The notes beneath the pieces were generated by a model. It did not search any database, had not been told where the DNA came from, and saw only the letters and a list, made by a program, of their open reading frames with translations. The translations under genes were made by a program, and so were the position numbers. 64,000 nucleotides of DNA from a phage, in the sequence record OZ346228.1. One strand, 5' to 3'. Positions 3,946 to 41,013 of the stretch are shown piece after piece. The stretch's first letter is position 1. Every line of letters begins with the position of its first letter.

Positions 3946-4787
3946 AAATAACATTGTGGCTTCGTGCAGTGATGCACGTCGAAAACCTCTTTAATTGACG
4001 GGAAGGCTAAGTTGACTTTTACACCTAAACATGGTAAAAGCTCAATATGCTAATCCGCAGCGAAGACTAAAGGGGTGTAGTTAAAATGGCTAGATCAGTT
4101 GAGTATCACGGATATACCGTGTTTGATGATGGAACAATACCTTTATCGAAACGTGATCATACAACAATGTTTTGTTTTGATAATGGTCGAGGTTACCTTT
4201 GCGTAACCATGTTCATCGAGGGGAAGCAGTGCACAAAAGGTGTCCACCACTTGGTTGCTGAATGCTTTGTATCAAACCCTGATCCTGAAAGGCTCACATG
4301 GGTGAACCATAAGGACGGAAACAAATACAACAATGCATACTGGAACCTTGAATGGACCACCCCTGGTGGAAATATCAAACACGCTTATGATAATGACCTC
4401 AGAGTAAGGCCAGTCGGTGAGTATAATGCCAACGCTGTACTGACCGAGGATGAGGTAACGGAGATTTGCGAACTGTTACAAAGTGGTTTACGACAATGCG
4501 AGATTAGGGATCTTGGGTATCCTTATGAGACGGTCAGAGCCATAAAGCAAAGAAGACAGTGGAAACATATCTCTAAAAACTACACCTGGTAGTAACGTTC
4601 AGAGACTATCGAAAGCATAGCGCCAACATAAATTGGTGCGAAGAAGCGAGTAGAGTAGACCAGCAAGTGCGGTCGAAATGGGAGGTGCCTTGGTAACAAG
4701 GTAGTGAGATAGTCCGATCCATACAGGAAACTGTATGGCTGTGCACGTAATGGTGCGGGGTAGCTTAACGACCTACCTGAACTATTG
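3946..4787 (+). mobile_element. Group I intron interrupting DNA polymerase before motif C
   Basis: Exon 1 ends on U at 3945; AGACTA (P7 5' strand) at 4064-4069; GAGATAGTCCG (P7 3' strand) at 4706-4716; P9-like hairpin CCATACAG-GAAA-CTGTATGG at 4719-4738; terminal G at 4787; joining gives ..YYH-DEYQLQV. Confidence 0.75.
4086..4592 (+). CDS. HNH homing endonuclease, intron-encoded
   Basis: HNH motif WVNHKDGNKYNNAYWNLEW; lies inside the proposed intron between P7 5' and P7 3' elements. Confidence 0.8.
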   Translation: MARSVEYHGYTVFDDGTIPLSKRDHTTMFCFDNGRGYLCVTMFIEGKQCTKGVHHLVAECFVSNPDPERLTWVNHKDGNKYNNAYWNLEWTTPGGNIKHAYDNDLRVRPVGEYNANAVLTEDEVTEICELLQSGLRQCEIRDLGYPYETVRAIKQRRQWKHISKNYTW

Positions 4788-6348: not shown

Positions 6349-6603
6349 ATGAAAATTACTCTGAAGCCAGAATGCGTTGAAAATGACCGAGCTTTTAAAG
6401 ATTGCACAATCGGTGCAATTTATGAAGCAGAGTTTTGTGAGAACCCTTTGGTAAAAGCCCTTCTGGAAGAAGGAGCTCCTCTATCACAGGAAGAGCTTGA
6501 TGAGTTGGAAAACTCAGCACAGTGCCTTACCTTTAAAGATGATGAAGGAGACTCTGTCTGGTGCACTGTTAATGAAGTAGTTTTTGTAAAACCTGAACAT
6601 TAA
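6349..6603 (+). CDS. hypothetical Cys-containing protein (tandem paralog 1)
   Basis: RBS AAGGAG; KPECVENDRAFKDCT..TFKDDEGDSVWCT shared with next ORF. Confidence 0.6.
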   Translation: MKITLKPECVENDRAFKDCTIGAIYEAEFCENPLVKALLEEGAPLSQEELDELENSAQCLTFKDDEGDSVWCTVNEVVFVKPEH

Positions 6604-6666
6604 TGCTTGACAACAGTCATAGGGCCTACTATAATGGCCCTATCAAAACGAAAGGGGACCACAGCA

Positions 6667-6939
6667 ATGACCAAACAATATCAACGAATTAAAGCCAAGG
6701 TTAAGCCAGACTATCTGGAGAAGGACTCTGCTTTTCGGGACTGCACAGCTGACAAAGTTTACACAGGGGCCGTCCTGTTGAACGATGAACTTGAAGTAGA
6801 TATTCTGGGTAAAGAGGCCACTATTAAGGACGACCAAGGCGATTATGTTTGCTGCACCACACGTGAGCTAGAAATCTTAGAATACTTCGGTGAAATCTTC
6901 ACCTCTCTTGATGATTACTTAGATGATGAGGAAGCGTGA
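6667..6939 (+). CDS. hypothetical Cys-containing protein (tandem paralog 2)
   Basis: RBS AAGGGG; KPDYLEKDSAFRDCT..TIKDDQGDYVCCT parallels previous ORF. Confidence 0.6.
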   Translation: MTKQYQRIKAKVKPDYLEKDSAFRDCTADKVYTGAVLLNDELEVDILGKEATIKDDQGDYVCCTTRELEILEYFGEIFTSLDDYLDDEEA

Positions 6940-20601: not shown

Positions 20602-20692
20602 AATAGTTTGACAACAAACAACCATCTAACAAAGCATAATACATAAGGTGGTAGAATGATCCGCCACCCGGAACAAAGAAGAGGTAAACACC

Positions 20693-20938
20693 ATGAAAAG
20701 CAATAAAGGTTATAACGGTTACAAAAACAAAACTCATTGGAATGTAAGCCTTTGGATTAATAACGATGAGTCATTGTACCGGTTGGCCCAAGGATTTATT
20801 AACGCTAATGCTAATCGTAATGATGCGGCGCGGGATATGATGCTTTTTCTGGAGCTAACCGGACAAGATAAGACCCCGGACGGCTTCAAGTACAGCACTA
20901 CGGCGATCCGTGCCGCGATGGTTGGAATGAAACACTAA
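20693..20938 (+). CDS. hypothetical protein
   Basis: RBS AAGAGG; last gene of rightward block. Confidence 0.55.
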   Translation: MKSNKGYNGYKNKTHWNVSLWINNDESLYRLAQGFINANANRNDAARDMMLFLELTGQDKTPDGFKYSTTAIRAAMVGMKH

Positions 20939-21984
20939 AAGCACATAGCCGCCAGATCTCAGAATTTACGTACGCTCACCAGTCTATAGCCTGCTAAGTA
21001 TTTATTCCAACCATAGAATAACGGAATAGTCAATACCTGCATAAAATAATTATTCGTGTAAACTGCATAACATAAATCGGCTAGGATGTCAACATTTTTC
21101 GTAAACAGCTCGAAATTATAACGGTGAGTTATAATAAACAGAGAAATCTTTAGTCGTCTAATGTTTACTGTACATTACTATACTGACTGGAATCATTAGA
21201 TGACTAAGAGAAAGATAAGAAATCATTAACAATGCAATTGTTTTATTCGTAACAATAAGGCAACTATGCAAACGGATGGCATGGCGCGACGGAGTCGCGA
21301 CATAATATAAAAGCAGTAACCATCACCCCCGTGATAGTTTGTCTGCAAACTATTAATCAGATCATAGTTGCCTTGTATTTAGTTAATCATGACATAACAA
21401 GCAAGGCAACTATAGATCTGCTAATAGTTGCCCTGCTTTTATATTATGTCATAGATTATTAGCCTGTTAATTGTTAGTCAGTCAAATCAACAACGTTATC
21501 ATTTCAGTCTTTATTGTTGTTGATCGTTATTGTTATCATGCAAACGAATGGCATGGCTTATCATTTTTGAGTAAACAATCTATACGTGAACAGTGAGGCA
21601 TGCAATAGTAAGGGCGGGAATAATGAGAGTGTAAACTGTCAGGCATGTCAATTATATCAATCGTGTCAGTTATGTCACCATTATGTCAGACAAGTTTTTC
21701 TCCTCTTTGTCAAGTGCTGCATGAAAAATTTACAATCTTGTATGGTAGCATTTTTGCGGCCCTGTTTACATTCAGTATTGTATGTATAATCCTTGTTGTG
21801 TGGGCGTTTAGACGTCTAGACGGTCAGAAGTCTGCAGGTTAATATCTAATCTATCGGCTGCTAACTATATCCCACACAAATAGTAAGAAATATAATTGTT
21901 ATGTGCGTAAACAGTAACTCATGTTATCAATCCCTGTATGTATCGCCAGTGGTGCGCATAATGGGTATTATGTTAAATTGCCCG

Positions 21985-22128
21985 TAATGATAATGGTTCT
22001 CACAATGATAGGTATTCTCATTCCCCCACACAAAATAGATTGCAAATGTTGTGCCACTATGTGAACGGCCTCACCTATTAATTTGCCTCACTGCCTCGAT
22101 ATTTGAGAATTATCATAAGAATGAGAAG
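21985..22128. promoter_or_regulatory. Further copies of the Fur-box-like motif inside the 2.2-kb non-coding region
   Basis: AATGATAATGGTTCTCACAATGATAGGTATTCTCATT and inverted GAGAATTATCATAAGAATGAGAAG. Confidence 0.3.
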
Positions 22129-23125
22129 TATTCCCATTTCGTCCGCCTGGCAGCACTCCAGTCGCTACGGCTCAGAACAGGGCAGAATTGTGTCCATTCA
22201 GATATTTCTGTCTGGCTCTTCAGGTCTGTGTGGGAAAAGTCCACCTCTCTGGCGGGGCATGGGGTCATGACGGGAAAATTGCAGGTCAATTAAAAAATTT
22301 ACGTGGTGTATGAAGCGCTCTTCAGGTAAGGCATGTATTATGGGATGAAACCCTCTTCAGGCAATGATATTTGTGGGTGTGATATTTGCTGGAAAGCCAG
22401 ATATGACGGGACTCCCGGCGGGGCAGGGGTAGTACAGACAGGGGAAATATGGAGGATGTGGTTAGGTGAATTGATCAGACAGGTAGAGTATGGAATATGT
22501 TACAGGTATGTTAAATAGGGCGGCTGAATATCTGTAGGATTTGTGTGTAAAATCAAAGACTTAAGTGGTGTTGTGGTATTTTCTATAAATAATTCAAGTT
22601 TAATAGGTAATATTTGTCTCTATTCGCTTTGTGTGGTAAACAGATTCAGATGAGATTGGTTTACAAGCGTATACATAATATACAAATTAAAGATACAAGA
22701 AACCCCCCTCCCCCTTCGGCTACCATTCACCTTTTCCTCTGACTGGTACTTAAACACTTATTCAGACTCTTCAGGTTATCACCCATATATCATATGGCAG
22801 TGACTGGTGTCCTCCGGCCCCTCTTTCGTCACCCGTCCGCTTCGCCATGCTAATGCCATAGCCAATGGTTCGGTTGTTCACCCTGTTCACTCAGGTGTAT
22901 CTCCATACCCCTTCAAAACGAAGAGAACAGAAAACCCGAATTACTCGGTAAAAGAAAAGAGAAGAACTTAATTTTATCAGGATAGGCAAGAATGTCAAGG
23001 CATGACTGCTCACTAAACAAGCAAACAGTCATGTGTGGGAGGTAAGTGATTGTGGTGGTAGGAAATTTAGTTGAAAGATGTGTTATAGGTGCTTCCAGCA
23101 CTTTAGCCGGGCAGCTAATTGTGTG

Positions 23126-24691: not shown

Positions 24692-24720
24692 GTAAAAAGA
24701 GGGGCCCAAGCCCCCTCTTT
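24692..24720 (-). terminator. rho-independent terminator (- strand)
   Basis: On - strand AAGAGGGGGC-TTGG-GCCCCCTCTT then TTTTTAC. Confidence 0.5.
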
Positions 24721-25818: not shown

Positions 25819-26106
25819 TCATAGTGCCTCTAAGATTTCATATCCTTCAGGTCGAAATACAAGCCACTCCGTGGCTCCGTTTGGTCGATACGCTTTATAC
25901 AGAACAACCTGATCTCGGCACATGCACATGGCTACATAGTTTTCATCCACACCTGCAGCCTGCATTGCATCTTCTTCTCCGGCAACTGCTTTGCTTACAA
26001 CTTCCTTGGTAGGTAGGTGTGCGATCAGCTCGTCACCATCATTAATTCCAAAATGACTGAGTTCTCCATTGGTATCTTTAATCTTAATCTTAACCAGATC
26101 TTTCAT
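25819..26106 (-). CDS. hypothetical protein
   Basis: 1-nt start/stop overlap with upstream gene. Confidence 0.5.
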   Translation of the reverse strand: MKDLVKIKIKDTNGELSHFGINDGDELIAHLPTKEVVSKAVAGEEDAMQAAGVDENYVAMCMCRDQVVLYKAYRPNGATEWLVFRPEGYEILEAL

Positions 26107-26435
26107 TAGTCTTTCTCCAGGTTCAAAGGTCCTAAGATTTCATATGCCAGATTAGAAGTTACCAGAGGGTCTTCTGCATCTTTAGTATTGTACCACCCGT
26201 GAATAACCAGAGTCCCACTTTGTTTCATATCCAACTGGAACTGTTCTGCAGTTTCCTCATCCAGCTCCAAGATTTCCATAAGGTATTTGATGTTAGGAAG
26301 GTATGCAGCTGTTACAGTTCCCTCCACCAAACCTTCGGGCCAACCTACATCCGGATGACAAGTAGGAACCAGGTTGGTCAACTTAATGGTGTACGCTTTT
26401 TCTGCACGAGCCTTCAGTAACGGGTCAATCTTCAT
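26106..26435 (-). CDS. hypothetical protein
   Basis: Translationally coupled array. Confidence 0.5.
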   Translation of the reverse strand: MKIDPLLKARAEKAYTIKLTNLVPTCHPDVGWPEGLVEGTVTAAYLPNIKYLMEILELDEETAEQFQLDMKQSGTLVIHGWYNTKDAEDPLVTSNLAYEILGPLNLEKD

Positions 26436-26785
26436 TATTCGTCCTCCTCTTCGGTGCCTGCTTCCAGTAATAAGTTAAGAATATCTTCTGCACAAGGCTC
26501 ATAGAACTCTTGGCCTTCATTATCGATGATTTTGTAGTCATCTCCACGAATAATCAGGGGATCACTCTCAAAATTATCGAGACCTTTAACAACGACAACA
26601 CGATCGATTGCCATCATTGTAAGAACTTTATCGACATCTTCCTCTGCTACACCATACTGCAGCAGAATGTCTTTGGTAGGAGGAACAGCATCCACCACAA
26701 CGCCGTTACCAAAACCTTCTGGAAGTTTAGCTAAAATATCTTCCGGAACCACATTCACATCAAAACCGGTAATTTCTACTTTCAT
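26435..26785 (-). CDS. hypothetical acidic protein
   Basis: Translationally coupled array. Confidence 0.5.
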   Translation of the reverse strand: MKVEITGFDVNVVPEDILAKLPEGFGNGVVVDAVPPTKDILLQYGVAEEDVDKVLTMMAIDRVVVVKGLDNFESDPLIIRGDDYKIIDNEGQEFYEPCAEDILNLLLEAGTEEEDE

Positions 26786-27046
26786 TTACAGCACCTCTTC
26801 GTCAACTACTTCATAAAAATGGCCTGGGATTGCAATAGCGTTCTCACCTTCACCTGCAAACACAGTTCCGTCAAGAATCAACATCATAAGAATTTCTGTA
26901 ATATCCTCTTCCGGAACGTTGCCAAAACCTTTAATCAGCTCGTAGGTTGGAATATTTACATCTAAGATGTCACCATCTTTAGAACGGAAATCAACACCGT
27001 CCTGAATCTCTGCCGTTTCAAGGTTTTTCAATTTAATCTTCATCAA
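26786..27046 (-). CDS. hypothetical protein
   Basis: Co-oriented ORF; C-terminus FYEVVDEEVL. Confidence 0.5.
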   Translation of the reverse strand: MMKIKLKNLETAEIQDGVDFRSKDGDILDVNIPTYELIKGFGNVPEEDITEILMMLILDGTVFAGEGENAIAIPGHFYEVVDEEVL

Positions 27047-27122
27047 TCGGTCTCCTGTCTTGTTAAGATGAAGGTATTATTTCACACAGGGTTGGCGTTG
27101 TCAACACCTGTGTGCAAGAAAA

Positions 27123-27518
27123 TTACTGAAACAGTGCGGATAAATTACCTTCTGGTGGGAACTTATCTGCCAAAAACGGTGTTAGCACAGTAGCCTTCTG
27201 AAGATCTGGGGTCCACTCGTTGTTCAGAACATCCCAGTAGTACGCAATGTTGCTGTGTGGGTGCCGCATTACGAACTTTTTCCCTTCGTAGTCGTCTGAA
27301 ACCTCTACAGAAGAAATAACAACAGAATCTTCAAGGGTTTCTTCATAGAAAGATCCCCCTTCAAATTTCCAACGAGATGCAAGAGCCCCTGCCTTGAACG
27401 CTGCAGATAACGGACTGTCGGCAAGAACATACATTTCTTGCACTCTGTCGCTGCGATCTTTGCTTCTTACGTTGTATACAGTATCTGAGCTATACTCAAC
27501 ACGGTATAGGCTTACCAT
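27123..27518 (-). CDS. hypothetical protein, paralog of 29330-29728
   Basis: KFVMRHPHSNIAYYWDVLNNEWTP versus KVFVIVHPDSRVKHYWNSRTKTWTP. Confidence 0.55.
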   Translation of the reverse strand: MVSLYRVEYSSDTVYNVRSKDRSDRVQEMYVLADSPLSAAFKAGALASRWKFEGGSFYEETLEDSVVISSVEVSDDYEGKKFVMRHPHSNIAYYWDVLNNEWTPDLQKATVLTPFLADKFPPEGNLSALFQ

Positions 27519-27877
27519 TACCGCACCTCCTCAATAACTTCCACATCTGAACCTACCACAAATGCAAAAGGACAGGTTTCATGAAAGACATCTGGATCGC
27601 CGCCAAGCTTGCTAACAATCTCTCCACCACTAATAAACACAAGCTCACCGATATTCATCAGATTGCTGAAATAGTACCCATAATGATTAAAGAATGCAGC
27701 AGGGTCAGGTAGACTGGTAGCCTCAAGCACTACATCGGTTGAGGTTACTTTCTTATCATAACCTCTCGCCTTTTGAGATGCAAGATCTGCAGAATCCTCA
27801 GGAGACCGGAGATGCACAGGAATTGTTTCACCAATAAAGCGTACTTTCATATTATCACCCAACAACCATAGCTTCAA
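27518..27877 (-). CDS. hypothetical protein (start uncertain)
   Basis: C-terminus ..DVEVIEEVR; overlaps upstream ORF. Confidence 0.5.
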   Translation of the reverse strand: MKLWLLGDNMKVRFIGETIPVHLRSPEDSADLASQKARGYDKKVTSTDVVLEATSLPDPAAFFNHYGYYFSNLMNIGELVFISGGEIVSKLGGDPDVFHETCPFAFVVGSDVEVIEEVR

Positions 27878-28118
27878 AAGGAGTCATGAACGAATAAACG
27901 GCATCATCATCTGCTTCAGGGAATGCTCCCAAAGACTTCATATCTGAACCCTTGACAAATACAAGGTTTTGATCAAAGGCTTCTTGGGGGTCAATCCGAT
28001 ACATATTTCGTAGAATATCGCTTACCTCCTCATCAAGAGGTGAGTATGCTGTGCACGTTTTTCCGATCAAGCTTTGAGAATCAGGGTATCCACCTGAAGT
28101 TTTAAAATAAACAATCAT
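27855..28118 (-). CDS. hypothetical protein
   Basis: Co-oriented ORF. Confidence 0.45.
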   Translation of the reverse strand: MIVYFKTSGGYPDSQSLIGKTCTAYSPLDEEVSDILRNMYRIDPQEAFDQNLVFVKGSDMKSLGAFPEADDDAVYSFMTPFEAMVVG

Positions 28119-28209
28119 ATAGTATCACCTCTGGTAAGAGATTGGGATTCCTTTCCCACAAATAATTACAAATCTTCCTTATCGAGGAAGTATGCTAATC
28201 CAAGCAGGA

Positions 28210-28479
28210 TTATTCCTCTACAATCTCATACACATCAGGAGTTACAATCAACTCTTCTCCGTTACCCGGTGCAACAAACACCACCAAACCTTCAGGTGTG
28301 TGCTTTTTAGCCATCTCGATAACATCTTCTCGCAGAGCTGGCTCCATCAGATCAAAACCTTCACCCAGGGCATCACGAACCACCTTCATATAGTCAACTG
28401 GTTGTGCTTCAACAATCATGCCTTCAACCAGTCCACAGTTTTTGTCTGCCAGCTCAGTTTTGAATAATTTAATTTTCAT
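28210..28479 (-). CDS. hypothetical protein
   Basis: RBS GAGGAG; C-terminus ..VYEIVEE. Confidence 0.5.
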   Translation of the reverse strand: MKIKLFKTELADKNCGLVEGMIVEAQPVDYMKVVRDALGEGFDLMEPALREDVIEMAKKHTPEGLVVFVAPGNGEELIVTPDVYEIVEE

Positions 28480-28505
28480 TTAGAGGTCTCCTCAATTATT
28501 TGATA

Positions 28506-28607
28506 TTAATAGCCGTAACCTAACACATTAACTACAACTGCGATTGCAAACATAATTTCAAAGCATGCAATCTCTACATTTGGGACTAATTTCTTAATCA
28601 CACCCAT
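28506..28607 (-). CDS. small hydrophobic peptide (33 aa, tentative)
   Basis: RBS GAGGTG; MGVIKKLVPNVEIACFEIMFAIAVVVNVLGYGY. Confidence 0.3.
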   Translation of the reverse strand: MGVIKKLVPNVEIACFEIMFAIAVVVNVLGYGY

Positions 28608-28616
28608 TGTAGCACC

Positions 28617-28937
28617 TCATTCTCCAAAGTCAATCTTTACTTTGCCTTTCCCCTTACCTTTCTTTCCACCGCATTTAGCCAGCTGACGTGCTGCAACATC
28701 TACCATACGGTCAGTTGCCTCGTAAGCATCACTGCCTTTAGCCTTGGCAATAACTTCTTTTCCAGAATTGTCAAAAATGAACGCCATAACTTCCTGGTGA
28801 TCATTTTCAACTTTTACACTTACACGTGCATAGTTAACAGAGGGATGTAAACGCTCCAGCTTGGACATTTTGCGGGAAATAAAAGATACCATACCTTCTG
28901 TGATTTCTACATTGTTGCCAGTGATTTCAATTTGCAT
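28617..28937 (-). CDS. hpf: ribosome hibernation promoting factor (HPF/YfiA family)
   Basis: MQIEITGNNVEITEG..KLE..VSVKVE..ARQLAK tracks E. coli HPF MQLNITGNNVEITEA..KLE..VVLKVE..ARQLTK (from memory). Confidence 0.8.
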   Translation of the reverse strand: MQIEITGNNVEITEGMVSFISRKMSKLERLHPSVNYARVSVKVENDHQEVMAFIFDNSGKEVIAKAKGSDAYEATDRMVDVAARQLAKCGGKKGKGKGKVKIDFGE

Positions 28938-29021
28938 AACGTGTTCCTTTTAAGGAAGAGGGAATAACTATCTCTCTTTGAAAACAATGATACTAAATCT
29001 GAAGCGTTGTGTCAACAGTTT

Positions 29022-29312
29022 TTACAGCTTGTTGTCGATAGTTTTTAAAATATCCACAGCAAGATCTGCCATTTTTCGAACATACTCTGCAAACTCAACA
29101 GGATCCTTGATCAAAGAATTCACAGGGTCGTACCCTAGAGCGTTTAAAATGGCTGCAGCATCTACAACCTTCTCATCATTTGCGAAGATCTCTCCGTCAA
29201 ACTTGTAGGTCCATTTTGAGTCAACCTTAGCAGAGCAGGGTTTGTCCATGCTTGTTACACCATCGTCTTTAAACTCTCCTGCGTTATCAATATTTAGAAT
29301 TAAATCCATCAT
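29022..29312 (-). CDS. hypothetical protein
   Basis: Co-oriented ORF. Confidence 0.5.
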   Translation of the reverse strand: MMDLILNIDNAGEFKDDGVTSMDKPCSAKVDSKWTYKFDGEIFANDEKVVDAAAILNALGYDPVNSLIKDPVEFAEYVRKMADLAVDILKTIDNKL

Positions 29313-29329
29313 GGTGACACCTCACTGTT

Positions 29330-29728
29330 TCAGTTTAGCTTTTCTTCAACAACCCCATAACTTGGGGCAGAGTCAAGAGCTTTCTGGTTTAAAAGTGGCG
29401 TAGCAGAATCTGCAAACGGTGTCCAAGTTTTTGTTCTGGAATTCCAGTAATGCTTCACTCTGGAATCTGGATGCACTATAACAAAAACTTTTTCACTTGT
29501 CAACACATTAATTTCTTCTACACCCTTGCTGATAATTTCTCCGTCATAGCCCCCAGTCTGGTATCCTTCGTACCAGGTTCTTGCATAGGCATAGCCAGCC
29601 TGCCAGCATGCAGCCTCCTCCGAGGTGGAGACTACGTAGAAGTCTTTCTCAAATTCCGGAATACGCCCTTGCTTTACGCTCCAAGCTCCGCGAATTTTCA
29701 TTGTTACTTTGAAAAGCTTGTTCTTCAT
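29330..29728 (-). CDS. hypothetical protein, paralog of 27123-27518
   Basis: Shared HP(D/H)S..YW..(W/T)TP motif. Confidence 0.55.
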   Translation of the reverse strand: MKNKLFKVTMKIRGAWSVKQGRIPEFEKDFYVVSTSEEAACWQAGYAYARTWYEGYQTGGYDGEIISKGVEEINVLTSEKVFVIVHPDSRVKHYWNSRTKTWTPFADSATPLLNQKALDSAPSYGVVEEKLN

Positions 29729-29729
29729 A

Positions 29730-29984
29730 CTACCGCTCTACAATCTCTACGTCTGTTCCTACACCGAAGGCATAGTAATGTTCTTCCCCAAAGTAATACT
29801 TGGGGACACCCGCTTTGATCAGATCTAACCCGCGAATAAATACCACACCGTGTGATACAGTGGAATGCTTCTGACGCACAGGATCGTTGTCAGGCAACCA
29901 TTCAAAGTACACCGCAGGTACAACCTTTCCCTTCAGGAAGGATTGTCCCAAGTAGACGTTAGAATCAAGAATTTTAACCTTCAT
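29730..29984 (-). CDS. small protein, MKVK..EIVE paralog family
   Basis: MKVKILDSNVYLGQ..GKV..RGLDLIKAG..DVEIVER. Confidence 0.55.
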   Translation of the reverse strand: MKVKILDSNVYLGQSFLKGKVVPAVYFEWLPDNDPVRQKHSTVSHGVVFIRGLDLIKAGVPKYYFGEEHYYAFGVGTDVEIVER

Positions 29985-30201
29985 TCTCGTCCTCCACTAT
30001 CTCTGCATCCTCACCAAGGGCAAAGTTGTAGGTCCACTGGCTGTCAAAGCAGTCTTGAGATGCACCAGCGGCAATAAGATCTGCACCTTTTATTTTTAAA
30101 AGGTCAGGATAATCTTCGTTAGGGATAGCGGTAAACACTTTCCCCACTAAGGGCTCCTGACCAATATAGAAGCTTGAATCTAAAACTTTAACTTTCATCA
30201 A
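29974..30201 (-). CDS. small protein, MKVK..EIVE paralog family
   Basis: MMKVKVLDSSFYIGQ..GKV..KGADLIAAG..AEIVED; tandem to previous. Confidence 0.55.
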   Translation of the reverse strand: MMKVKVLDSSFYIGQEPLVGKVFTAIPNEDYPDLLKIKGADLIAAGASQDCFDSQWTYNFALGEDAEIVEDENEG

Positions 30202-30485
30202 CGGTCTCCCTCAGGCGGTTGTGGGACGTAAACACTGTTACGAATATCGTCAGCAGTGTAGTAATAAGTGGTTCCAACCCTATCTCGGGCTGCAATGTAC
30301 TCTGCTATACCAACAAGTGCCATTGATTTGGTGGCGTATCTTCCCCACTCGTTAGCTCCCCAGTAGAATTTAGACCAGTAGGGAATAAGACCGAACAAAT
30401 ATACCTTTTGACGAACTTCCCAGTAAGTGCCTTTTCCGACAAGTTTAAACTCTACTTCACTACTGTTAATCTTTTTCATTATCAA
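30198..30485 (-). CDS. hypothetical protein
   Basis: 4-nt overlaps both sides. Confidence 0.5.
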   Translation of the reverse strand: MIMKKINSSEVEFKLVGKGTYWEVRQKVYLFGLIPYWSKFYWGANEWGRYATKSMALVGIAEYIAARDRVGTTYYYTADDIRNSVYVPQPPEGDR

Positions 30486-30778
30486 TCTCCCTCTACCGTG
30501 GTCGGATTGTCAGTAAGAAATTGAGCATTGGCTGGAGGCACGCCTGACATTTTCCACACAACCATAAGTTTATAACCAGGCACTCTATTAAGTGCAGATC
30601 GAGTAGAGTTTGTGCACGTATACTTTCGCTTTCCAAACCCGTTCTCCATCATAATCCAGTACCCAGTATCTTTGTCACCAGGTATCGGTAGACCACCTTC
30701 ATCAACCCACTGAATTGACCACGGCACGATGGCTACAGCTTTATATTTAAACTTTTTAAACCACTCAAAAAGTTTCAT
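30482..30778 (-). CDS. hypothetical protein
   Basis: Co-oriented ORF. Confidence 0.5.
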   Translation of the reverse strand: MKLFEWFKKFKYKAVAIVPWSIQWVDEGGLPIPGDKDTGYWIMMENGFGKRKYTCTNSTRSALNRVPGYKLMVVWKMSGVPPANAQFLTDNPTTVEGD

Positions 30779-31078
30779 AATTCAGCCCCGCATAGACATA
30801 ATCACTATAAATAGGCAAACAATGAATCCGAATGCCACGCCACCCATAAACGTTAATATTGATGCAATCATAGTCAATCAGCCTCGCCTGGCAACTCTTC
30901 TACCTTAACATGCCGAAAAGTGTTACCGTAATGGTTGATCCATGACATCAGCTCACTTTCTTGCTCTTCCTCTGGGATGAACTCTCGAATACTGACAAGT
31001 TTTAAGAAAACCTAATCACAATCTGCACCCATTCTACCAGACAGACAATAGTGCTTCATAAAAACCCTCCCGCCCGGT

Positions 31079-31273
31079 TTAGAATATTGCTTCTTCCATT
31101 GCGCCTGAGAGCAACAAAGAGGTGATCTGGCTAACATTCATCTCAGACTCTACTTCCTCCCCTTTGAAAGGTTCGCGGCAGAATAGGACTGTTTCAGGAC
31201 TTTTACTTCGAACAATATAATACAAATCATTCAATGTGTTGTAGTAATAAGTGTTAAAACGTAAGTTTTTCAT
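31079..31273 (-). CDS. hypothetical protein
   Basis: 4-nt overlap with upstream gene. Confidence 0.45.
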   Translation of the reverse strand: MKNLRFNTYYYNTLNDLYYIVRSKSPETVLFCREPFKGEEVESEMNVSQITSLLLSGAMEEAIF

Positions 31274-31557
31274 TTTCTAGTCCTCTTCTTAGATTTTTGG
31301 GGAGAAACGCTTTCTGCAATACGAGACAGACGTTCTTCTGAAGCCTTACCTACTCCAGGTTTTTTGAGTGGATTATCTTTATGACCACAATCCAACTGGA
31401 TATTGGATACCTCTCCAACTTTGTAAGTCAATTCTAGCAAAAGGTTGTCGTCCTTGTCAAATGTTTTTACGATAAATTTTTTATCGTTCTCCTGAACTTC
31501 ATATCTGGTACCTGCAGTATACAGCATGGTGCCATCAGCATAGGATATCCAGATCAT
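31270..31557 (-). CDS. hypothetical protein
   Basis: Translationally coupled. Confidence 0.5.
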   Translation of the reverse strand: MIWISYADGTMLYTAGTRYEVQENDKKFIVKTFDKDDNLLLELTYKVGEVSNIQLDCGHKDNPLKKPGVGKASEERLSRIAESVSPQKSKKRTRK

Positions 31558-31901
31558 TGAGCCTCCTTTTGCTGCAACAGCATTAACTCTTTGTTAGAGA
31601 TCTTTACTGCTGTTTTTATTGTTCCATCTTCACGAAACCACGACCAGAACTCTACAGTGTCACCACTATCAAGTAAAGCATGCCCATGGTAAAAATCTTT
31701 GTCCTTAGACAGTTTCTCATCTATATCTGCATCAACACATTCGTGATCCAGAGCATTTTGCCTGAACGCATCGGTTATGCCAATGCACGCCTTGCTCTCA
31801 AGACTGGTATATCCGATATCTTTTAATTCAGTTTCCCAAGTCCAGTACCCTATAAAAGCTAAAACAGCTACCCACAGTAATAACGTTTTAATCTTTGGCA
31901 T
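31554..31901 (-). CDS. hypothetical exported/membrane protein
   Basis: N-terminal hydrophobic segment LLLWVAVLAFIGYWTW. Confidence 0.5.
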   Translation of the reverse strand: MPKIKTLLLWVAVLAFIGYWTWETELKDIGYTSLESKACIGITDAFRQNALDHECVDADIDEKLSKDKDFYHGHALLDSGDTVEFWSWFREDGTIKTAVKISNKELMLLQQKEAQ

Positions 31902-31963
31902 TCTCTCTACCTCTTTCTTAGTTTATTTCACTATGGCACATCCTTTGTGCCATATCTCAACTA

Positions 31964-32434
31964 CTACTTAAATAGTAGTTCAAAATAGTGCAAAATTAAC
32001 AGAAGTTGAACTACACCTAGTGCAACGGCGAGTATGTTAATCTTAGAATCGAAAAACTTCTTAACTTTTACTCTAAAAGGTTCCTTAATGTCCTTTACGA
32101 TCCTATCTATAGATGACCTCATATCTCTGATTACCATCCTGAACATTAAAGACGGATGCTCCCCCATCTCCGTAACGGAATCGAAAACATACTCTCTTCG
32201 GTCATAAGGGCCGCCAGCTCTGCGTATTAACCTCTCCACAGAGACCTCGAACGTCACACCTGTAACGTAATCATCTATAACAAGTCGTGACGGGTCTTTA
32301 CCTTTACTATCAAGAGGTATCAAAGTTATCTTTCCAGATTTTGTTAAAATTTCCCCTTTTTCAAGCAAGGTGTACCAATGCTCTCTGCCAAGACTGTTGA
32401 GGCACGTTTTTACATATTTAACAAACATCGTCAC
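31964..32434 (-). CDS. hypothetical protein with C-terminal TM helix
   Basis: C-terminal ILAVALGVVQLLLILHYF. Confidence 0.5.
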   Translation of the reverse strand: MTMFVKYVKTCLNSLGREHWYTLLEKGEILTKSGKITLIPLDSKGKDPSRLVIDDYVTGVTFEVSVERLIRRAGGPYDRREYVFDSVTEMGEHPSLMFRMVIRDMRSSIDRIVKDIKEPFRVKVKKFFDSKINILAVALGVVQLLLILHYFELLFK

Positions 32435-32634
32435 CCCTCATCGCACGTCTGATATAACCACTCTATAAAATCTTGATACCATTCGCCCTCTGAGCGCTCC
32501 GTAGGCCAATAATCTTCACCCTCTCGTGCATTAAAATCTGAGTATTCAACTTTCCACTCCTTTACCAGCTCGTGGAGAAGGTTTTCAGCCTGCTCTAAAG
32601 ATTTATTTTTTACCATTGCTGTCTCCTTTTTCAA
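32431..32634 (-). CDS. hypothetical protein
   Basis: RBS AAAGGAG. Confidence 0.5.
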   Translation of the reverse strand: MKKETAMVKNKSLEQAENLLHELVKEWKVEYSDFNAREGEDYWPTERSEGEWYQDFIEWLYQTCDEG

Positions 32635-32710
32635 GATAGTTATACATCAGAACTGCACCACCTAAGATGGCTACCAGTAACAATATCCCAGATAGCATCT
32701 CAATAAACAT
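32603..32710 (-). CDS. small hydrophobic peptide (35 aa, tentative)
   Basis: MFIEMLSGILLLVAILGGAVLMYNYLEKGDSNGKK; carries RBS of next gene. Confidence 0.3.
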   Translation of the reverse strand: MFIEMLSGILLLVAILGGAVLMYNYLEKGDSNGKK

Positions 32711-32835
32711 GGCTTGAAACACTGGAAGGTCTCCCTAAATTAACGCACCATTTTAAATACATGCTCTTTTCCCATAAAGGTGCCTGGCTAAGATCTGCGT
32801 AGAACGCAATCTCTTTAAGAACAGTATAGATAGTT

Positions 32836-33063
32836 TTAGGTGCGGTCTCCATCCCTACTCTCCTTCCTGATATTCTTGTAGTAATCAACTAGGCACATTA
32901 TTACGATGAAGATAACAACAGGCCAAAAAGGTGCAGCAGTGATGATGGTGATAAAATCATCAAACTTCACCCTTCGTCTGGACACGATGCATACACCTGT
33001 CAAGAATACCGCTGTTATAACGGACATTACCAGGTAACCTATTAGCACAACATTTATACTCAT
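32836..33063 (-). CDS. hypothetical membrane protein
   Basis: Two predicted TM helices. Confidence 0.45.
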   Translation of the reverse strand: MSINVVLIGYLVMSVITAVFLTGVCIVSRRRVKFDDFITIITAAPFWPVVIFIVIMCLVDYYKNIRKESRDGDRT

Positions 33064-33093
33064 TGGTCCTCCCTTTGTAGGTTAAATTGTATA

Positions 33094-33627
33094 CTACAAA
33101 TGGTCGCTGAGGGTGTCAAGAAAATTATCCCGTTCTTTCTCAGAGTTTTCATGTGTGTAGCTGAAAAACATATCGAGAATAACCTTATTGATATATTCCA
33201 GCTCCTCTGTGTTCAGATGCTTAGCAGGATCTACAATGACATCCCAAATATCATACAGACCGCACTCATGATACCCATAACGCCACTCAATTGTCAAGCT
33301 GAGCGGCAAATCTTTACCTTCACAAACAACCTTCCATCTACATATGTTGGTATCTGGTCGTACCTGTGCACGGTACACCTGCACAAAATCCAATTTGAAT
33401 TTGAGGTACTCGTCATACAATTTAAGCACAAAGCTCTCGATTTGTGGAGACACTTTTGCAGCAAACTGTGCGTATTCGTACTTGCACTGGATGATCTTTC
33501 TGCGTTTTGCAGTTAAATTTTTTGCCGCCAGTTGTTCTTCAGTGTATCTCCACCTACGATCAACAAACGCAACAGGGTCTTTGTCCCCATAGAGGTCTTC
33601 CCAGTTAATCAGAAGCATACCTGTCAC
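33094..33627 (-). CDS. hypothetical protein
   Basis: 177-aa ORF, 4-nt overlap with upstream gene. Confidence 0.55.
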   Translation of the reverse strand: MTGMLLINWEDLYGDKDPVAFVDRRWRYTEEQLAAKNLTAKRRKIIQCKYEYAQFAAKVSPQIESFVLKLYDEYLKFKLDFVQVYRAQVRPDTNICRWKVVCEGKDLPLSLTIEWRYGYHECGLYDIWDVIVDPAKHLNTEELEYINKVILDMFFSYTHENSEKERDNFLDTLSDHL

Positions 33628-33857
33628 TCCTCCACAACTTCAAGGCCTTTACCGCCTCGCTCTGGCAGATTACTTAAAGATAGGTAATACATATAATCAG
33701 GAGAGATCCTGCCAGACTCTGCACCTGCAGCTAGTAAATCCTTCCCTTTAACCAGGACAACATTCTCGTTTGCAGATAGCCGTTTTGCTTCCACAATTTT
33801 ACCAACACAGTCAACCAAGGAAGGGTACCCTAAATCTGTAAGAAATTTAACTTTCAT
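33624..33857 (-). CDS. small protein, MKVK..EIVE paralog family
   Basis: MKVKFLTDLGY..GKIV..KGKDLLAAG..LEVVEE. Confidence 0.55.
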   Translation of the reverse strand: MKVKFLTDLGYPSLVDCVGKIVEAKRLSANENVVLVKGKDLLAAGAESGRISPDYMYYLSLSNLPERGGKGLEVVEE

Positions 33858-34564: not shown

Positions 34565-34849
34565 CTACCAGGTTACTGTCAAGTAGGCAACCGTATTATT
34601 TTTCTCTGGGGAGATGCCAACAACATCTACCTGCAGACCTCCTGCCCTTAAATCTCCAACAATGTGCGGGAAGTAATCTGAGAGATGCGAGGGTAGATTT
34701 ATCGAAAATCCGCACCCCAGAAAGCCTGCTAACGCTTTATTTTGTATCTCCCCTACAATCGCATCATAAATGGAGTTAAGCTCGTCAGGGAGCGTTACAG
34801 GACGTTTTAGCGCTAACTGGTGTAATTTGTCCTTAGCACTCATTTTCAT
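34565..34849 (-). CDS. hypothetical protein
   Basis: ATGA overlap with methyltransferase stop. Confidence 0.5.
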   Translation of the reverse strand: MKMSAKDKLHQLALKRPVTLPDELNSIYDAIVGEIQNKALAGFLGCGFSINLPSHLSDYFPHIVGDLRAGGLQVDVVGISPEKNNTVAYLTVTW

Positions 34850-35379
34850 TTCAGGTCTACCTCTGGTGGTGCCAACCACATAAATGGCGGCAAGCCTAAA
34901 CGGTTTTTCTTATCCCACACAAAATATGCATATGCTTGCCCGTCAGTTCTGCCATTTGATTGAAAAGATGGACGCTTAGATATTGTGATCACAGTGGTAG
35001 GTGCATTATCAAGCCACCATTCAAATCTGGCTTTGCTTTCCAGAAAATTAAGACGCAAAAGCATAATAACTACGTCAGCATCTTTCAACGCCTTGTCTAC
35101 AAACTCACGAGCCAAACTGTATGGTGGGTTGGTGATAATACAGTCAACATGGTTGTATTCTGTATTCAGATAGTCAACACCTTCTTGGATTTCTCCCCAT
35201 GCAGATCCTAACGGCATACGGGAGTAGAACACACCTGAGGCACTATTCCTGCAAGGCTCTAAGTAGGTCCAGTCTTCTGGGAACGGAATAAGGTCATACA
35301 GCCCTTCTGCACACCACTCCGGTGTCACATACTCATCGTAGGCGTTACGTTGTTCATCAGGTTTTCGAGCACAAGTCAT
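34846..35379 (-). CDS. DNA N6-adenine methyltransferase (small Dam-like)
   Basis: Catalytic motif IITNPPY. Confidence 0.7.
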   Translation of the reverse strand: MTCARKPDEQRNAYDEYVTPEWCAEGLYDLIPFPEDWTYLEPCRNSASGVFYSRMPLGSAWGEIQEGVDYLNTEYNHVDCIITNPPYSLAREFVDKALKDADVVIMLLRLNFLESKARFEWWLDNAPTTVITISKRPSFQSNGRTDGQAYAYFVWDKKNRLGLPPFMWLAPPEVDLK

Positions 35380-40216: not shown

Positions 40217-41013
40217 CTGTCTCCTCCCTGTGTTTCCACAGGGCCAGACTATCTCTTACTCTACTTCAATAAGATAATAACCCTTTATTGTGAGATGCTT
40301 ACCTTCGGCATTTCCTTCGATAGCCCTATGAACGTTACCTACGTTCAAATTTAAGGCTTTTGCACAGGCATAGAGTGAAGGATATTCACCCACCAAGGTT
40401 TTACCTTTGTATGCCTGCACTTTCCTATAGCACTTACCTGGACAAAGTCCTGTTCGGAAAGCATGTCTCTTATTATCTTCCGGCAAAACCCACTCTAGGT
40501 TAGACGGATGATCATTCAATGTATTGCCATCTTTATGATTCACTTCCCAGTTTTCAGGGTCTTCTGGGACATCCGGCAAACAATACAAGGCAACAATCCT
40601 TGAGGTTTGGATTCGAATCTTTTTACCTTTGTGGTTGAAAGAGTACATATAACGGCGTTTAACATGCTTGTTACCTTTTCCATAACCTCCCCACAATATT
40701 GGGTGTAGCATTCCACGTTTTCCGTATACGTTTCCAACCTCATCAATCACATAGTTTGATTCTTCACCATTAAGAATGATCTTTTTCATAGAGCCTCTCC
40801 ATTTCGAAGTTAGTATTTCAACTAACCCCTACACTACTTGGTTCAGAAATGTTTGTCAAGCATTTCTGCCTTTCGTTAGTCGTTACAACCGTTCCAACTC
40901 CTGTAAGAACTAGTCACGGGATTGGCATAGCTTTCGCCTTAGCGTTCCCCGTTAGCCGGATTTACCGACCCCTCTTATGAGGTTAGGAGAGTTTTACAAC
41001 GGCCAGTTTGTTA
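40217..41013 (-). mobile_element. Group I intron in nrdD
   Basis: On - strand: exon 1 ends on U; AACGGGGAAC, CAATCCCGUG, CGACUAACG (P7 5'), GAGAUAGUCUGG (P7 3'), P9 hairpin CCCUGUG-GAAA-CACAGGG, terminal G. Confidence 0.75.
40256..40789 (-). CDS. HNH homing endonuclease, intron-encoded
   Basis: HNH motif EVNHKDGNTLNDHPSNLEW; inside nrdD intron. Confidence 0.8.
   Translation of the reverse strand: MKKIILNGEESNYVIDEVGNVYGKRGMLHPILWGGYGKGNKHVKRRYMYSFNHKGKKIRIQTSRIVALYCLPDVPEDPENWEVNHKDGNTLNDHPSNLEWVLPEDNKRHAFRTGLCPGKCYRKVQAYKGKTLVGEYPSLYACAKALNLNVGNVHRAIEGNAEGKHLTIKGYYLIEVE

Follow-up and report, generated by a model that had tools for sequence, protein, structure and literature searches.

The DNA analysed here is a 64,000-nt stretch of phage DNA (sequence record OZ346228.1), called the window below. 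Its subject is an array of small genes at positions 25819-33857, for which a preliminary description had reported expanded families of paralogous proteins. This 8-kb region was 99.4% identical to Escherichia phage nomo. Another ∼119 records matched it at 90% identity or more, and essentially all came from rV5-like Vequintaviruses; by its sequence, the window belongs to a Vequintavirus, an rV5-like Escherichia coli phage. Twelve small paralogous genes were found on the minus strand, where all open reading frames (ORFs) of the preliminary description were present. Their place is the far end of a long leftward unit whose first gene, near 60 kb, encodes an RNA ligase; further along the unit come genes for DNA ligase, exonuclease, thymidylate synthase, ribonucleotide reductases, PhoH, a ClpP-like protease and a methyltransferase. 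In the records of relatives the genes between 25.8 and 33.9 kb are annotated as hypothetical. Exceptions are the gene for the ribosome hibernation factor and a few product labels that say little or lack support ('virion structural protein', 'putative glycosidase', a duplicated 'sigma 54 modulation factor', 'HNH homing endonuclease' and 'putative membrane protein'). Sequence comparison grouped the twelve genes into three old paralog families, with five (A), two (B) and five (C) members (Table 1), so the repeated duplication of small, translationally coupled genes goes further than had been noted. Genes are named below by their lower coordinate.

Table 1. Genes of the three paralog families and transcription signals of the array, with positions in the window.
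Position	Strand	Feature	Length	rV5 counterpart	Evidence
33624-33857	-	Family A	77 aa	gp122 (ortholog)	phrog_5009, E 8.3e-36; hhalign against deep family profile, 99.8%
29974-30198	-	Family A	74 aa from ATG 30198	gp135	phrog_5009, E 5.9e-37
29730-29984	-	Family A	84 aa	gp136	phrog_5009, E 4.2e-27; hhalign against deep profile, 99.7%
27855-28118	-	Family A, remote	87 aa	gp142	hhalign against deep profile, 98.2%
27518-27850	-	Family A, remote	110 aa from ATG 27850	gp143	hhalign against deep profile, 97.1%
29330-29728	-	Family B, member B1	132 aa	gp137	phrog_7379, E 8e-74
27123-27518	-	Family B, member B2	131 aa	gp144	phrog_7379, E 2e-66
28210-28479	-	Family C	89 aa	gp141	L011 ortholog, 14.7 bits with C seed HMM
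26786-27043	-	Family C	85 aa	gp145	hhalign against 26435-26785, 92.3%, 84 columns; BLASTP E 3e-4
26435-26785	-	Family C	116 aa	gp146	C seed HMM member; net charge -21, pI 4.05
26106-26435	-	Family C	109 aa	gp147	C seed HMM, 13.8 bits; hhalign against 26435, 85.6%
25819-26106	-	Family C	95 aa	gp148 + gp149	C seed HMM, 14.4 bits
28987-29015	-	sigma70-type promoter, TTGACA-17-TATCAT			11/12 consensus matches
27076-27104	-	sigma70-type promoter, TTGACA-17-AATAAT, extended -10			11/12 consensus matches
24700-24715	-	Rho-independent terminator-like hairpin, GGGGGC-TTGG-GCCCCT, then T run			downstream of the array

A BLASTP comparison of all 397 ORFs of the window aligned 29730 with 29974 at 41% identity over 83 aa (E 2.9e-14) and 29974 with 33624 at 31% identity (E 1.5e-5), and all three proteins matched phrog_5009 (E 4e-27 to 6e-37), in agreement with the paralogy proposed for this trio. 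A three-sequence hidden Markov model (HMM) of family A also picked up 27855-28118 (E 3.2e-5) and 27518-27877 (E 1.1e-4), and a 34-sequence profile from which these remote members had been left out recovered them at E 2.4e-8 and E 1.3e-6, respectively. With the orthologs of a divergent relative (L011/L012, see below) included, hhalign gave probabilities of 99.9, 99.8, 99.7, 98.2 and 97.1% for the five family A genes, and the L011 ortholog of 27518 scored E 2.1e-11. Since phrog_5009 matched 27855 only weakly (E 1.2e-4) and did not match 27518 at E up to 0.01, both genes join family A through the deeper profile and hhalign. The preliminary description had missed 27855 and had listed 27518, 28210 and 26786 as looser members; the first of these is a true member of family A, while 28210 and 26786 fell into family C. 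As candidates for family A these two were rejected, with E values of 4.8 and above 5 in the three-sequence HMM search and no match at E below 1 with the 34-sequence profile. The likely true starts of 29974 and 27518 are the ATG codons given in Table 1, which match the annotation in relatives. The tandem partner of 29974, gene 29730, carries an insertion of 15-20 aa between strands 2 and 3 of the predicted fold; 27518 carries two insertions and forms a coupled pair with the family B gene 27123. Pfam had no match for the window members of family A (E up to 0.1) or for the 34 family members (E up to 1), and sequence searches of Pfam, NCBIfam and PDB with single proteins and with the A, B and C profiles returned nothing significant.

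The pair 27123-27518 and 29330-29728, described from the outset as clear paralogs, makes up family B. B1 and B2 were 27.7% identical over 119 aa (E 3.9e-7 among the window ORFs, 1.1e-9 among the array set), their hhalign probability was 97.3%, and both belong to phrog_7379.

Family C was recognized with a seed HMM built solely from 26435, 26786 and their orthologs. The best matches outside the seed were 25819, 26106 and the L011 ortholog of 28210 (13.8-14.7 bits), and none of 46,400 shuffled decoys reached these three scores. The window copy of 28210 itself scored 7.2 bits (E 0.13), a value reached by 19 of the 46,400 decoys, and it was placed in family C because of the score of its L011 ortholog; it aligned with 26786 over 77 columns at an hhalign probability of 67%. 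In round 2 of the iteration 26106 had an E value of 1e-5 before its own inclusion, and the search converged on exactly five window genes, with the next match at E 0.2. Four of the family C genes form an uninterrupted run. In the rV5 record (L020:18263-18533) the counterpart of 25819-26106 is split into two overlapping short ORFs, gp148 and gp149. The window gene is 97.6% identical to the rV5 DNA over its full length, and the split is likely to be a frameshift or a sequencing error in that record.

Profiles of families A and C were aligned by hhalign over 88-89 columns with an E value of 3.7e-5. Three strands correspond in this alignment: the first, MK(V/I)K, the second, G-x-(V/I)-x-x-A, and the last, YE(I/V)(V/I)E; a helix-rich insert lies in between. 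It scored 32.2, whereas valid column shuffles reached at most ∼16 and unrelated profiles of the array at most 18.4; a few shuffles scoring ∼130 were discarded, since the one that was inspected proved to be a numerical artefact of two columns and the rest scored nearly the same. Family C may thus be a distant, helix-inserted branch of family A, a link that we take as probable but not established.

The structure of family A was predicted with AlphaFold2 from the 34-sequence alignment, and the model had a predicted local distance difference test score (pLDDT) of 93.6 and a predicted template modelling (TM) score of 0.81. With five strands and one short helix, it showed a strongly bent antiparallel sheet that superposes on SH3, KOW and PsaE domains; family A is thus confidently predicted to be a stand-alone SH3/KOW-like five-stranded beta-barrel of ∼70 aa. 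Foldseek comparison of the model with PDB gave nothing below E 0.25, and the viral structure library BFVD returned solely uncharacterized small phage proteins. The second-best BFVD match (TM 0.77) was an 87-aa protein of Shigella phage CM1, a close relative; judging by length and genome, it is presumably the 27855-28118 ortholog. The family consensus was MKVKLLxxGGYxGxxxxxGKVVxA...IxGxDLIxAGA...YxFxxGxExEVIEE. In the model, the termini MK(V/I)K and E(I/V)(V/I)E correspond to the first and last strands, the paralog-specific insertions sit between strands 2 and 3, and the short helix between strands 3 and 4 bears the G-x-D-L-I-x-A-G-A motif. Known SH3/KOW barrels (the KOW domains of Spt5/NusG, L24, PsaE, the retroviral integrase C-terminal domain and eukaryotic SH3 domains) were 4-21% identical to family A. 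Unlike these, family A lacks a KOW (PF00467) or SH3 sequence signature, is phage-encoded, stand-alone and mostly acidic, and has its own motif on the short helix. The isoelectric point (pI) was 4.05-4.7 for 29974, 27855, 27518 and the family C members, 5.4 for 33624, 6.8 for 29730 and 7.8 for 29330, so that 11 of the 12 proteins are acidic or near neutral and 29330 is the exception. None of the 12 matched a characterized protein or enzyme family in the Pfam, PHROGs and NCBIfam searches.

A Shine-Dalgarno site precedes each of the 12 starts. The ATGA overlaps of the preliminary description were not present; the junctions are mostly 1-nt TAATG or TGATG overlaps, with two overlaps of 4 nt (GTGA and TTGA) and one of 11 nt. 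One of the 4-nt overlaps joins the stop codon of 33624-33857 to the GTG start of 33094-33627. The terminal codons of 33624, 29974, 27518, 26786, 26435 and 26106 contain GGAGGA, GAGGAGG, GAGGTG or GGAG (codons such as GAG GAG or GAA GAG GTG), and these motifs stand 5-10 nt ahead of the next start, at junctions 33627, 29984, 27518, 26785, 26435 and 26106. As the upstream gene's C-terminal codons supply the Shine-Dalgarno site for the gene after it, the acidic tails are partly dual-coding. The shared acidic C-terminus that had been noticed is therefore in part the last beta-strand, (Y/A)E(I/V)(V/I)E, and in part the product of GAG-rich codons that double as ribosome-binding sites. The ratio of nonsynonymous to synonymous substitution rates (dN/dS), calculated against rV5, APECc02 and CarlMeissner, was 0.0-0.2 in 11 of the 12 genes; the remaining gene, 26786, had a value of 0.47-0.62 on just 10-11 substitutions. 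Shine-Dalgarno sites and dN/dS together indicate that the 12 genes are translated, as the preliminary description had assumed, and are under purifying selection. Its term 'diversifying' found no such backing: no dN/dS value was near or above 1, the duplicates are old, and their order and copy number are kept. Neither pervasive positive selection nor turnover of copies was indicated by the dN/dS analysis and the copy-number survey. The preliminary interpretation is thus supported in part; a role in host interaction, which it also proposed, would be plausible.

Two promoters and a terminator frame parts of the array (Table 1). The promoter at 28987-29015 corresponds by position to P144 annotated in rV5 and stands directly upstream of the gene for the ribosome hibernation factor (RaiA/HPF; 28617-28937, Pfam S30AE, PF02482, E 4.2e-15), which is followed by 28210, 27855, 27518 and 27123. 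The second, at 27076-27104, corresponds by position to P150 and precedes the four-gene family C run, with 26786-27043 as the first gene downstream. The hairpin at 24700-24715 has the position of the terminator annotated after rV5 gp153. All three signals had been annotated independently by the rV5 authors, who proposed transcription by the host RNA polymerase throughout. In several GenBank and RefSeq records, e.g., APECc02 gp082, the family C gene 28210-28479 is labelled 'sigma 54 modulation factor'. An assignment of this gene to the PF02482 hibernation factors or sigma 54 modulation proteins was rejected, as Pfam gave no match; the label is a propagated annotation error, and the real hibernation factor is the adjoining 28617-28937.

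Families A, B and C were found by tblastn in ∼119 Vequintavirus records. Outside the genus, tblastn matches were obtained for family A alone, in the temperate phages mEp021, mEp013 and mEp554, whose homologs were 40-49% identical to 33624-33857; family A is also present in E. coli prophages, with the Q antiterminator on one side and the lysis genes on the other. All three families are missing from the syntenic regions of Seunavirus EC152, Certrevirus CR3 and Klebsiella phage K54_rec1, where most genes of the 25.8-30.2 kb region have no orthologs. The 12 genes are thus accessory and essentially confined to the genus Vequintavirus. The divergent Vequintavirus-like relative L011/L012 has five A and five C genes in conserved order and one B gene, with orthologs 29-74% identical to those of the window; B1 is not present there, and the ortholog of B2 is 40% identical. 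Among 1.84 billion representative proteins, 37 family A clusters were found at E up to 1e-3, almost all of them stand-alone proteins of 63-108 aa, and in two proteins the domain is fused in two or three copies. A word-indexed search of 5.8 billion proteins gave only Vequintavirus-like orthologs and one prophage cluster for family A and only close orthologs for family B, and a related-locus search with a subset of the family A alignment gave four viral loci only. The unrelated viral contigs L018, L017 and L019 carry 5, 3 and 2 copies of family A, partly in tandem. At L019:5352-6011 an HNH endonuclease reads without a stop into a family A domain (residues 149-218, E 1e-17), and a second family A gene follows directly. 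Eighteen GenBank records titled 'Campylobacter phage' also match the 25819-33857 region of the window, with a product of 33624-33857 that is 95-100% identical in those listed; these are probably mislabelled or contaminant genomes.

Copy number was almost invariant over ∼120 genomes, and the tandem A pair and B were found at two places per genome in ∼117 genomes. Since paralogs within the families are only 25-41% identical and the A and C copies are kept in order in L011/L012, the duplications are old and stable. The A-B pairs 29730+29330 and 27518+27123 aligned collinearly in tblastx (offsets 123 and 127 nt), and 29730 was the closest paralog of 27518 (hhalign 93.9%), which indicates that the coupled A-B pair was duplicated as a block; 29974 and 29730 would be a later tandem pair. 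In two metagenomic assemblies (L009:3001-3213 and L010:3001-3213) this tandem pair is replaced by a 70-aa chimera, produced by an in-frame deletion of ∼257 bp with its junction just past DLIxAGA (window equivalent 29798-30055). The chimera, which was absent from deposited phage genomes, arose by unequal recombination between the tandem paralogs. At the nucleotide level 29730-29984 was 76-77% identical to rV5, APECc02 and CarlMeissner amid flanking genes of 96-99% identity, which points to an allelic replacement, with two deeply diverged alleles within the genus; dN/dS between the alleles was 0.16-0.19.

A natural deletion covering part of the array was found in the BASEL phage Bas59 (EduardKellenberger). 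It spans 3.8 kb, equivalent to window positions 29416-33221, and its junction (L021:4517-4531) has a 15-bp overlap at which the ortholog of 33094-33627 is fused in frame to the last 33 codons of B1. Bas59 has thereby lost 29974, 29730, most of 29330 and nine other genes (12 in whole or large part), among them the ortholog of the 'virion structural protein' 31964-32434 (rV5 gp128). As Bas59 is a viable isolate on E. coli K-12, the two A genes and B1 are dispensable on this laboratory host; the BASEL isolation host is described as an immunocompromised MG1655 delta-RM (restriction-modification) strain. The ortholog of 33094-33627 bears the label 'putative glycosidase' in Bas48 and Bas59. This label is unsupported, since the 33094-33627 protein had no Pfam match. 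Escape mutants of the related phage Bas51 from two retrons mapped to an N6-adenine (GATC) methyltransferase and the 'glycosidase' gene (PMC12548924), the latter presumably the ortholog of 33094-33627; among the window's adenine methyltransferases, 34846-35379 is one candidate for the retron trigger.

Arrays of tandem, coupled small paralogous ORFan genes near early or middle genes occur in other large virulent phages, where they are genus-specific and individually dispensable; small paralogous accessory gene arrays in a large virulent phage are thus an ordinary phenomenon. In comparison with such arrays, the families, one predicted fold, the duplication units and a natural deletion are explicit here, and the copy number is unusually stable. 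In PHROGs, the core of family A (phrog_5009) and family B (phrog_7379) are matched end to end (E 4e-27 to 8e-74) and are both listed as 'unknown function'. As the trio falls into the one and the B pair into the other, the core paralogy is already implicit in that database, which splits the remote A members (phrog_13920 and phrog_13661) and the five C members (phrog_11868, 12359, 12155, 12457 and 12794) and records no function, fold or paralog history for these families. True family A members of equal length and 40-49% identity are mEp021 gp40 and its homologs in mEpimmI-type coliphages and E. coli prophages. These are single-copy genes between the Q antiterminator and the lysis genes of temperate phages, unlike the family A genes of the window, which stand in the nucleotide-metabolism unit of a lytic phage. 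The mEp021 paper does not mention them, no statement about the array genes was found in the searched literature on rV5, Vequintavirus, Bas48-52 and mEp021, and neither 'paralog' nor 'duplicat' occurs in the text of the rV5 genome paper. The retron, Avs2, CBASS and daunorubicin papers that used Bas48-59 implicate other genes. New in the present analysis are the two remote A members, family C, the predicted fold, the A-B block duplication, the chimera and the natural deletion.

We assign a probability of about 0.6 to the reading that the 12 genes, in their three old families, encode small binding modules that act as accessory modulators of the infected cell. From fold, size, position, distribution and dispensability, we infer that these small, mostly acidic proteins are non-enzymatic binding modules whose roles in the infected cell are accessory. 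They would be expressed during infection from promoters of the host RNA polymerase, and the variable loop may adapt each paralog to a distinct partner, from the host or from the phage. They would modulate the infected cell as accessories and would not be core components of replication or of the virion. Adjacent paralogs may act as hetero-oligomers, since other phages fuse two or three such domains in one polypeptide. Several points weigh against this reading. No homolog of known function backs any binding partner, and the most conserved motif of family A, G-x-D-L-I-x-A-G-A, looks in the model like a structural helix cap with buried L and I, and offers no obvious shared interaction site. The family B prediction, from a shallow alignment, had a pLDDT of 50 and was unusable for a fold search, and the link between A and C reaches just 71% by hhalign. 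The timing of expression is read from consensus promoters only, and dispensability covers 3 of the 12 genes on a defence-poor laboratory host. A bolder form of the reading, in which A and C are an undescribed superfamily of SH3/KOW-like mini-proteins working as hetero-oligomeric sets that retarget a conserved host machine during infection, is speculative and, in our view, unlikely. The fused two- and three-fold repeats elsewhere and the conserved A-B coupling suggest such sets, and one candidate target would be the translation apparatus, together with the co-located ribosome hibernation factor.

A role in counter-defence, for example as acidic DNA-mimic or decoy proteins acting against host immunity and each directed at a different defence system, is a tentative alternative that we regard as doubtful. 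The SH3-like CarS of Myxococcus is an acidic DNA mimic, and the array proteins are small and mostly acidic (pI 4.05-5.4 for most). The genes are accessory and genus-specific, a phage isolated on E. coli K-12 can do without some of them, and the neighbouring Dam-type methyltransferase and so-called glycosidase are sensed by retrons. However, two family A members are not acidic (29730, pI 6.8; 33624, pI 5.4), no characterized protein family was matched, and the rapid turnover and positive selection frequent in arms-race genes were not seen. Likeness to Ocr or ArdA found no Pfam or PDB sequence match, and the predicted fold is a beta-barrel and no helical DNA mimic. Effective anti-restriction is also unlikely, given that Vequintavirinae are reported to be 'exceptionally susceptible' to RM systems and to have no effective protection (PMC8594841). 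Action on the translation or transcription machinery, by a barrel like that of ribosomal L24/L26-type proteins or the Spt5/NusG KOW domains, seems improbable. The best, non-significant Foldseek matches in PDB were ribosomal KOW-type proteins, and the gene 28617-28937 for the hibernation factor stands between P144 and 28210, 27855, 27518 and 27123; yet there is no KOW sequence signature and no Pfam match, acidic proteins are poor RNA binders, and the adjacency of the family to the hibernation factor is not conserved in other phages.

Accessory proteins of phage tails and heads commonly contain SH3-like barrels, and a minor virion, decoration or assembly-chaperone role could also be drawn from the 'virion structural protein' annotations of 31964-32434 (rV5 gp128) in the array and of the mEp021 gene that adjoins the family A homolog. 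None of the 12 genes, however, has a structural annotation in the records of rV5 and its relatives, even though virion mass spectrometry was part of the rV5 study. Their neighbours are nucleotide-metabolism and early-type genes, the morphogenesis modules are far away, and Bas59 still forms plaques without two A genes, B1 and the gp128 ortholog. Given these annotations and the deletion, a structural role is unlikely, and we attach very little weight to it. Least credible is that part of the family resemblance is non-homologous and stems from the MK(V/I)K start that many small beta-proteins share and from C-terminal codons, rich in GAG, that are under selection to serve the following gene as its Shine-Dalgarno site. 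It is true that the terminal codons of six genes carry Shine-Dalgarno-like motifs, that unrelated array genes (33895 and the hibernation factor gene) also begin with MKIEIT or MQIEIT, and that 28210 and 26786 are not significant against family A profiles. Yet A, B and C each align over their full length with strong statistics, 28210 ends in EIVEE although the next gene is at least 91 nt away, and the A-C score exceeded those of all valid shuffles and unrelated array profiles.

Elsewhere in the window, ∼2.4 kb without long ORFs lie at 20650-23100 between convergent plus- and minus-strand arrays. This region has no Rfam match and contains a repeat cluster at 21250-21450 with the core ATAGTTGCC / GGCAACTAT and a perfect 18-nt inverted repeat (21299-21316 / 21433-21450); it could be an origin or a regulatory region. 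The genome figure of the rV5 paper also marks a 'non-coding' box, which may correspond to this region. Two other pairs of related genes were found: 6349-6603 and 6607-6939 on the plus strand encode tandem small proteins (35% identity, E 7e-9, no Pfam match), and the HNH homing-endonuclease-like genes 4086-4592 (plus strand) and 40256-40789 (minus strand) share 42% identity over 64 aa.

Phages of the rV5 type rank among those most often isolated from E. coli, and they find use in cocktails for biocontrol and therapy. In these phages, 12 mostly hypothetical genes reduce to three families, perhaps two superfamilies, and a propagated mis-annotation of 28210-28479 is corrected. The sequence data speak against a 'diversifying arms-race' reading of the array. 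The families, the predicted fold and the Bas59 mutant make a tractable set for deletion, pull-down and structure work on an SH3-like module that recurs, often multiplied, in unrelated phages.

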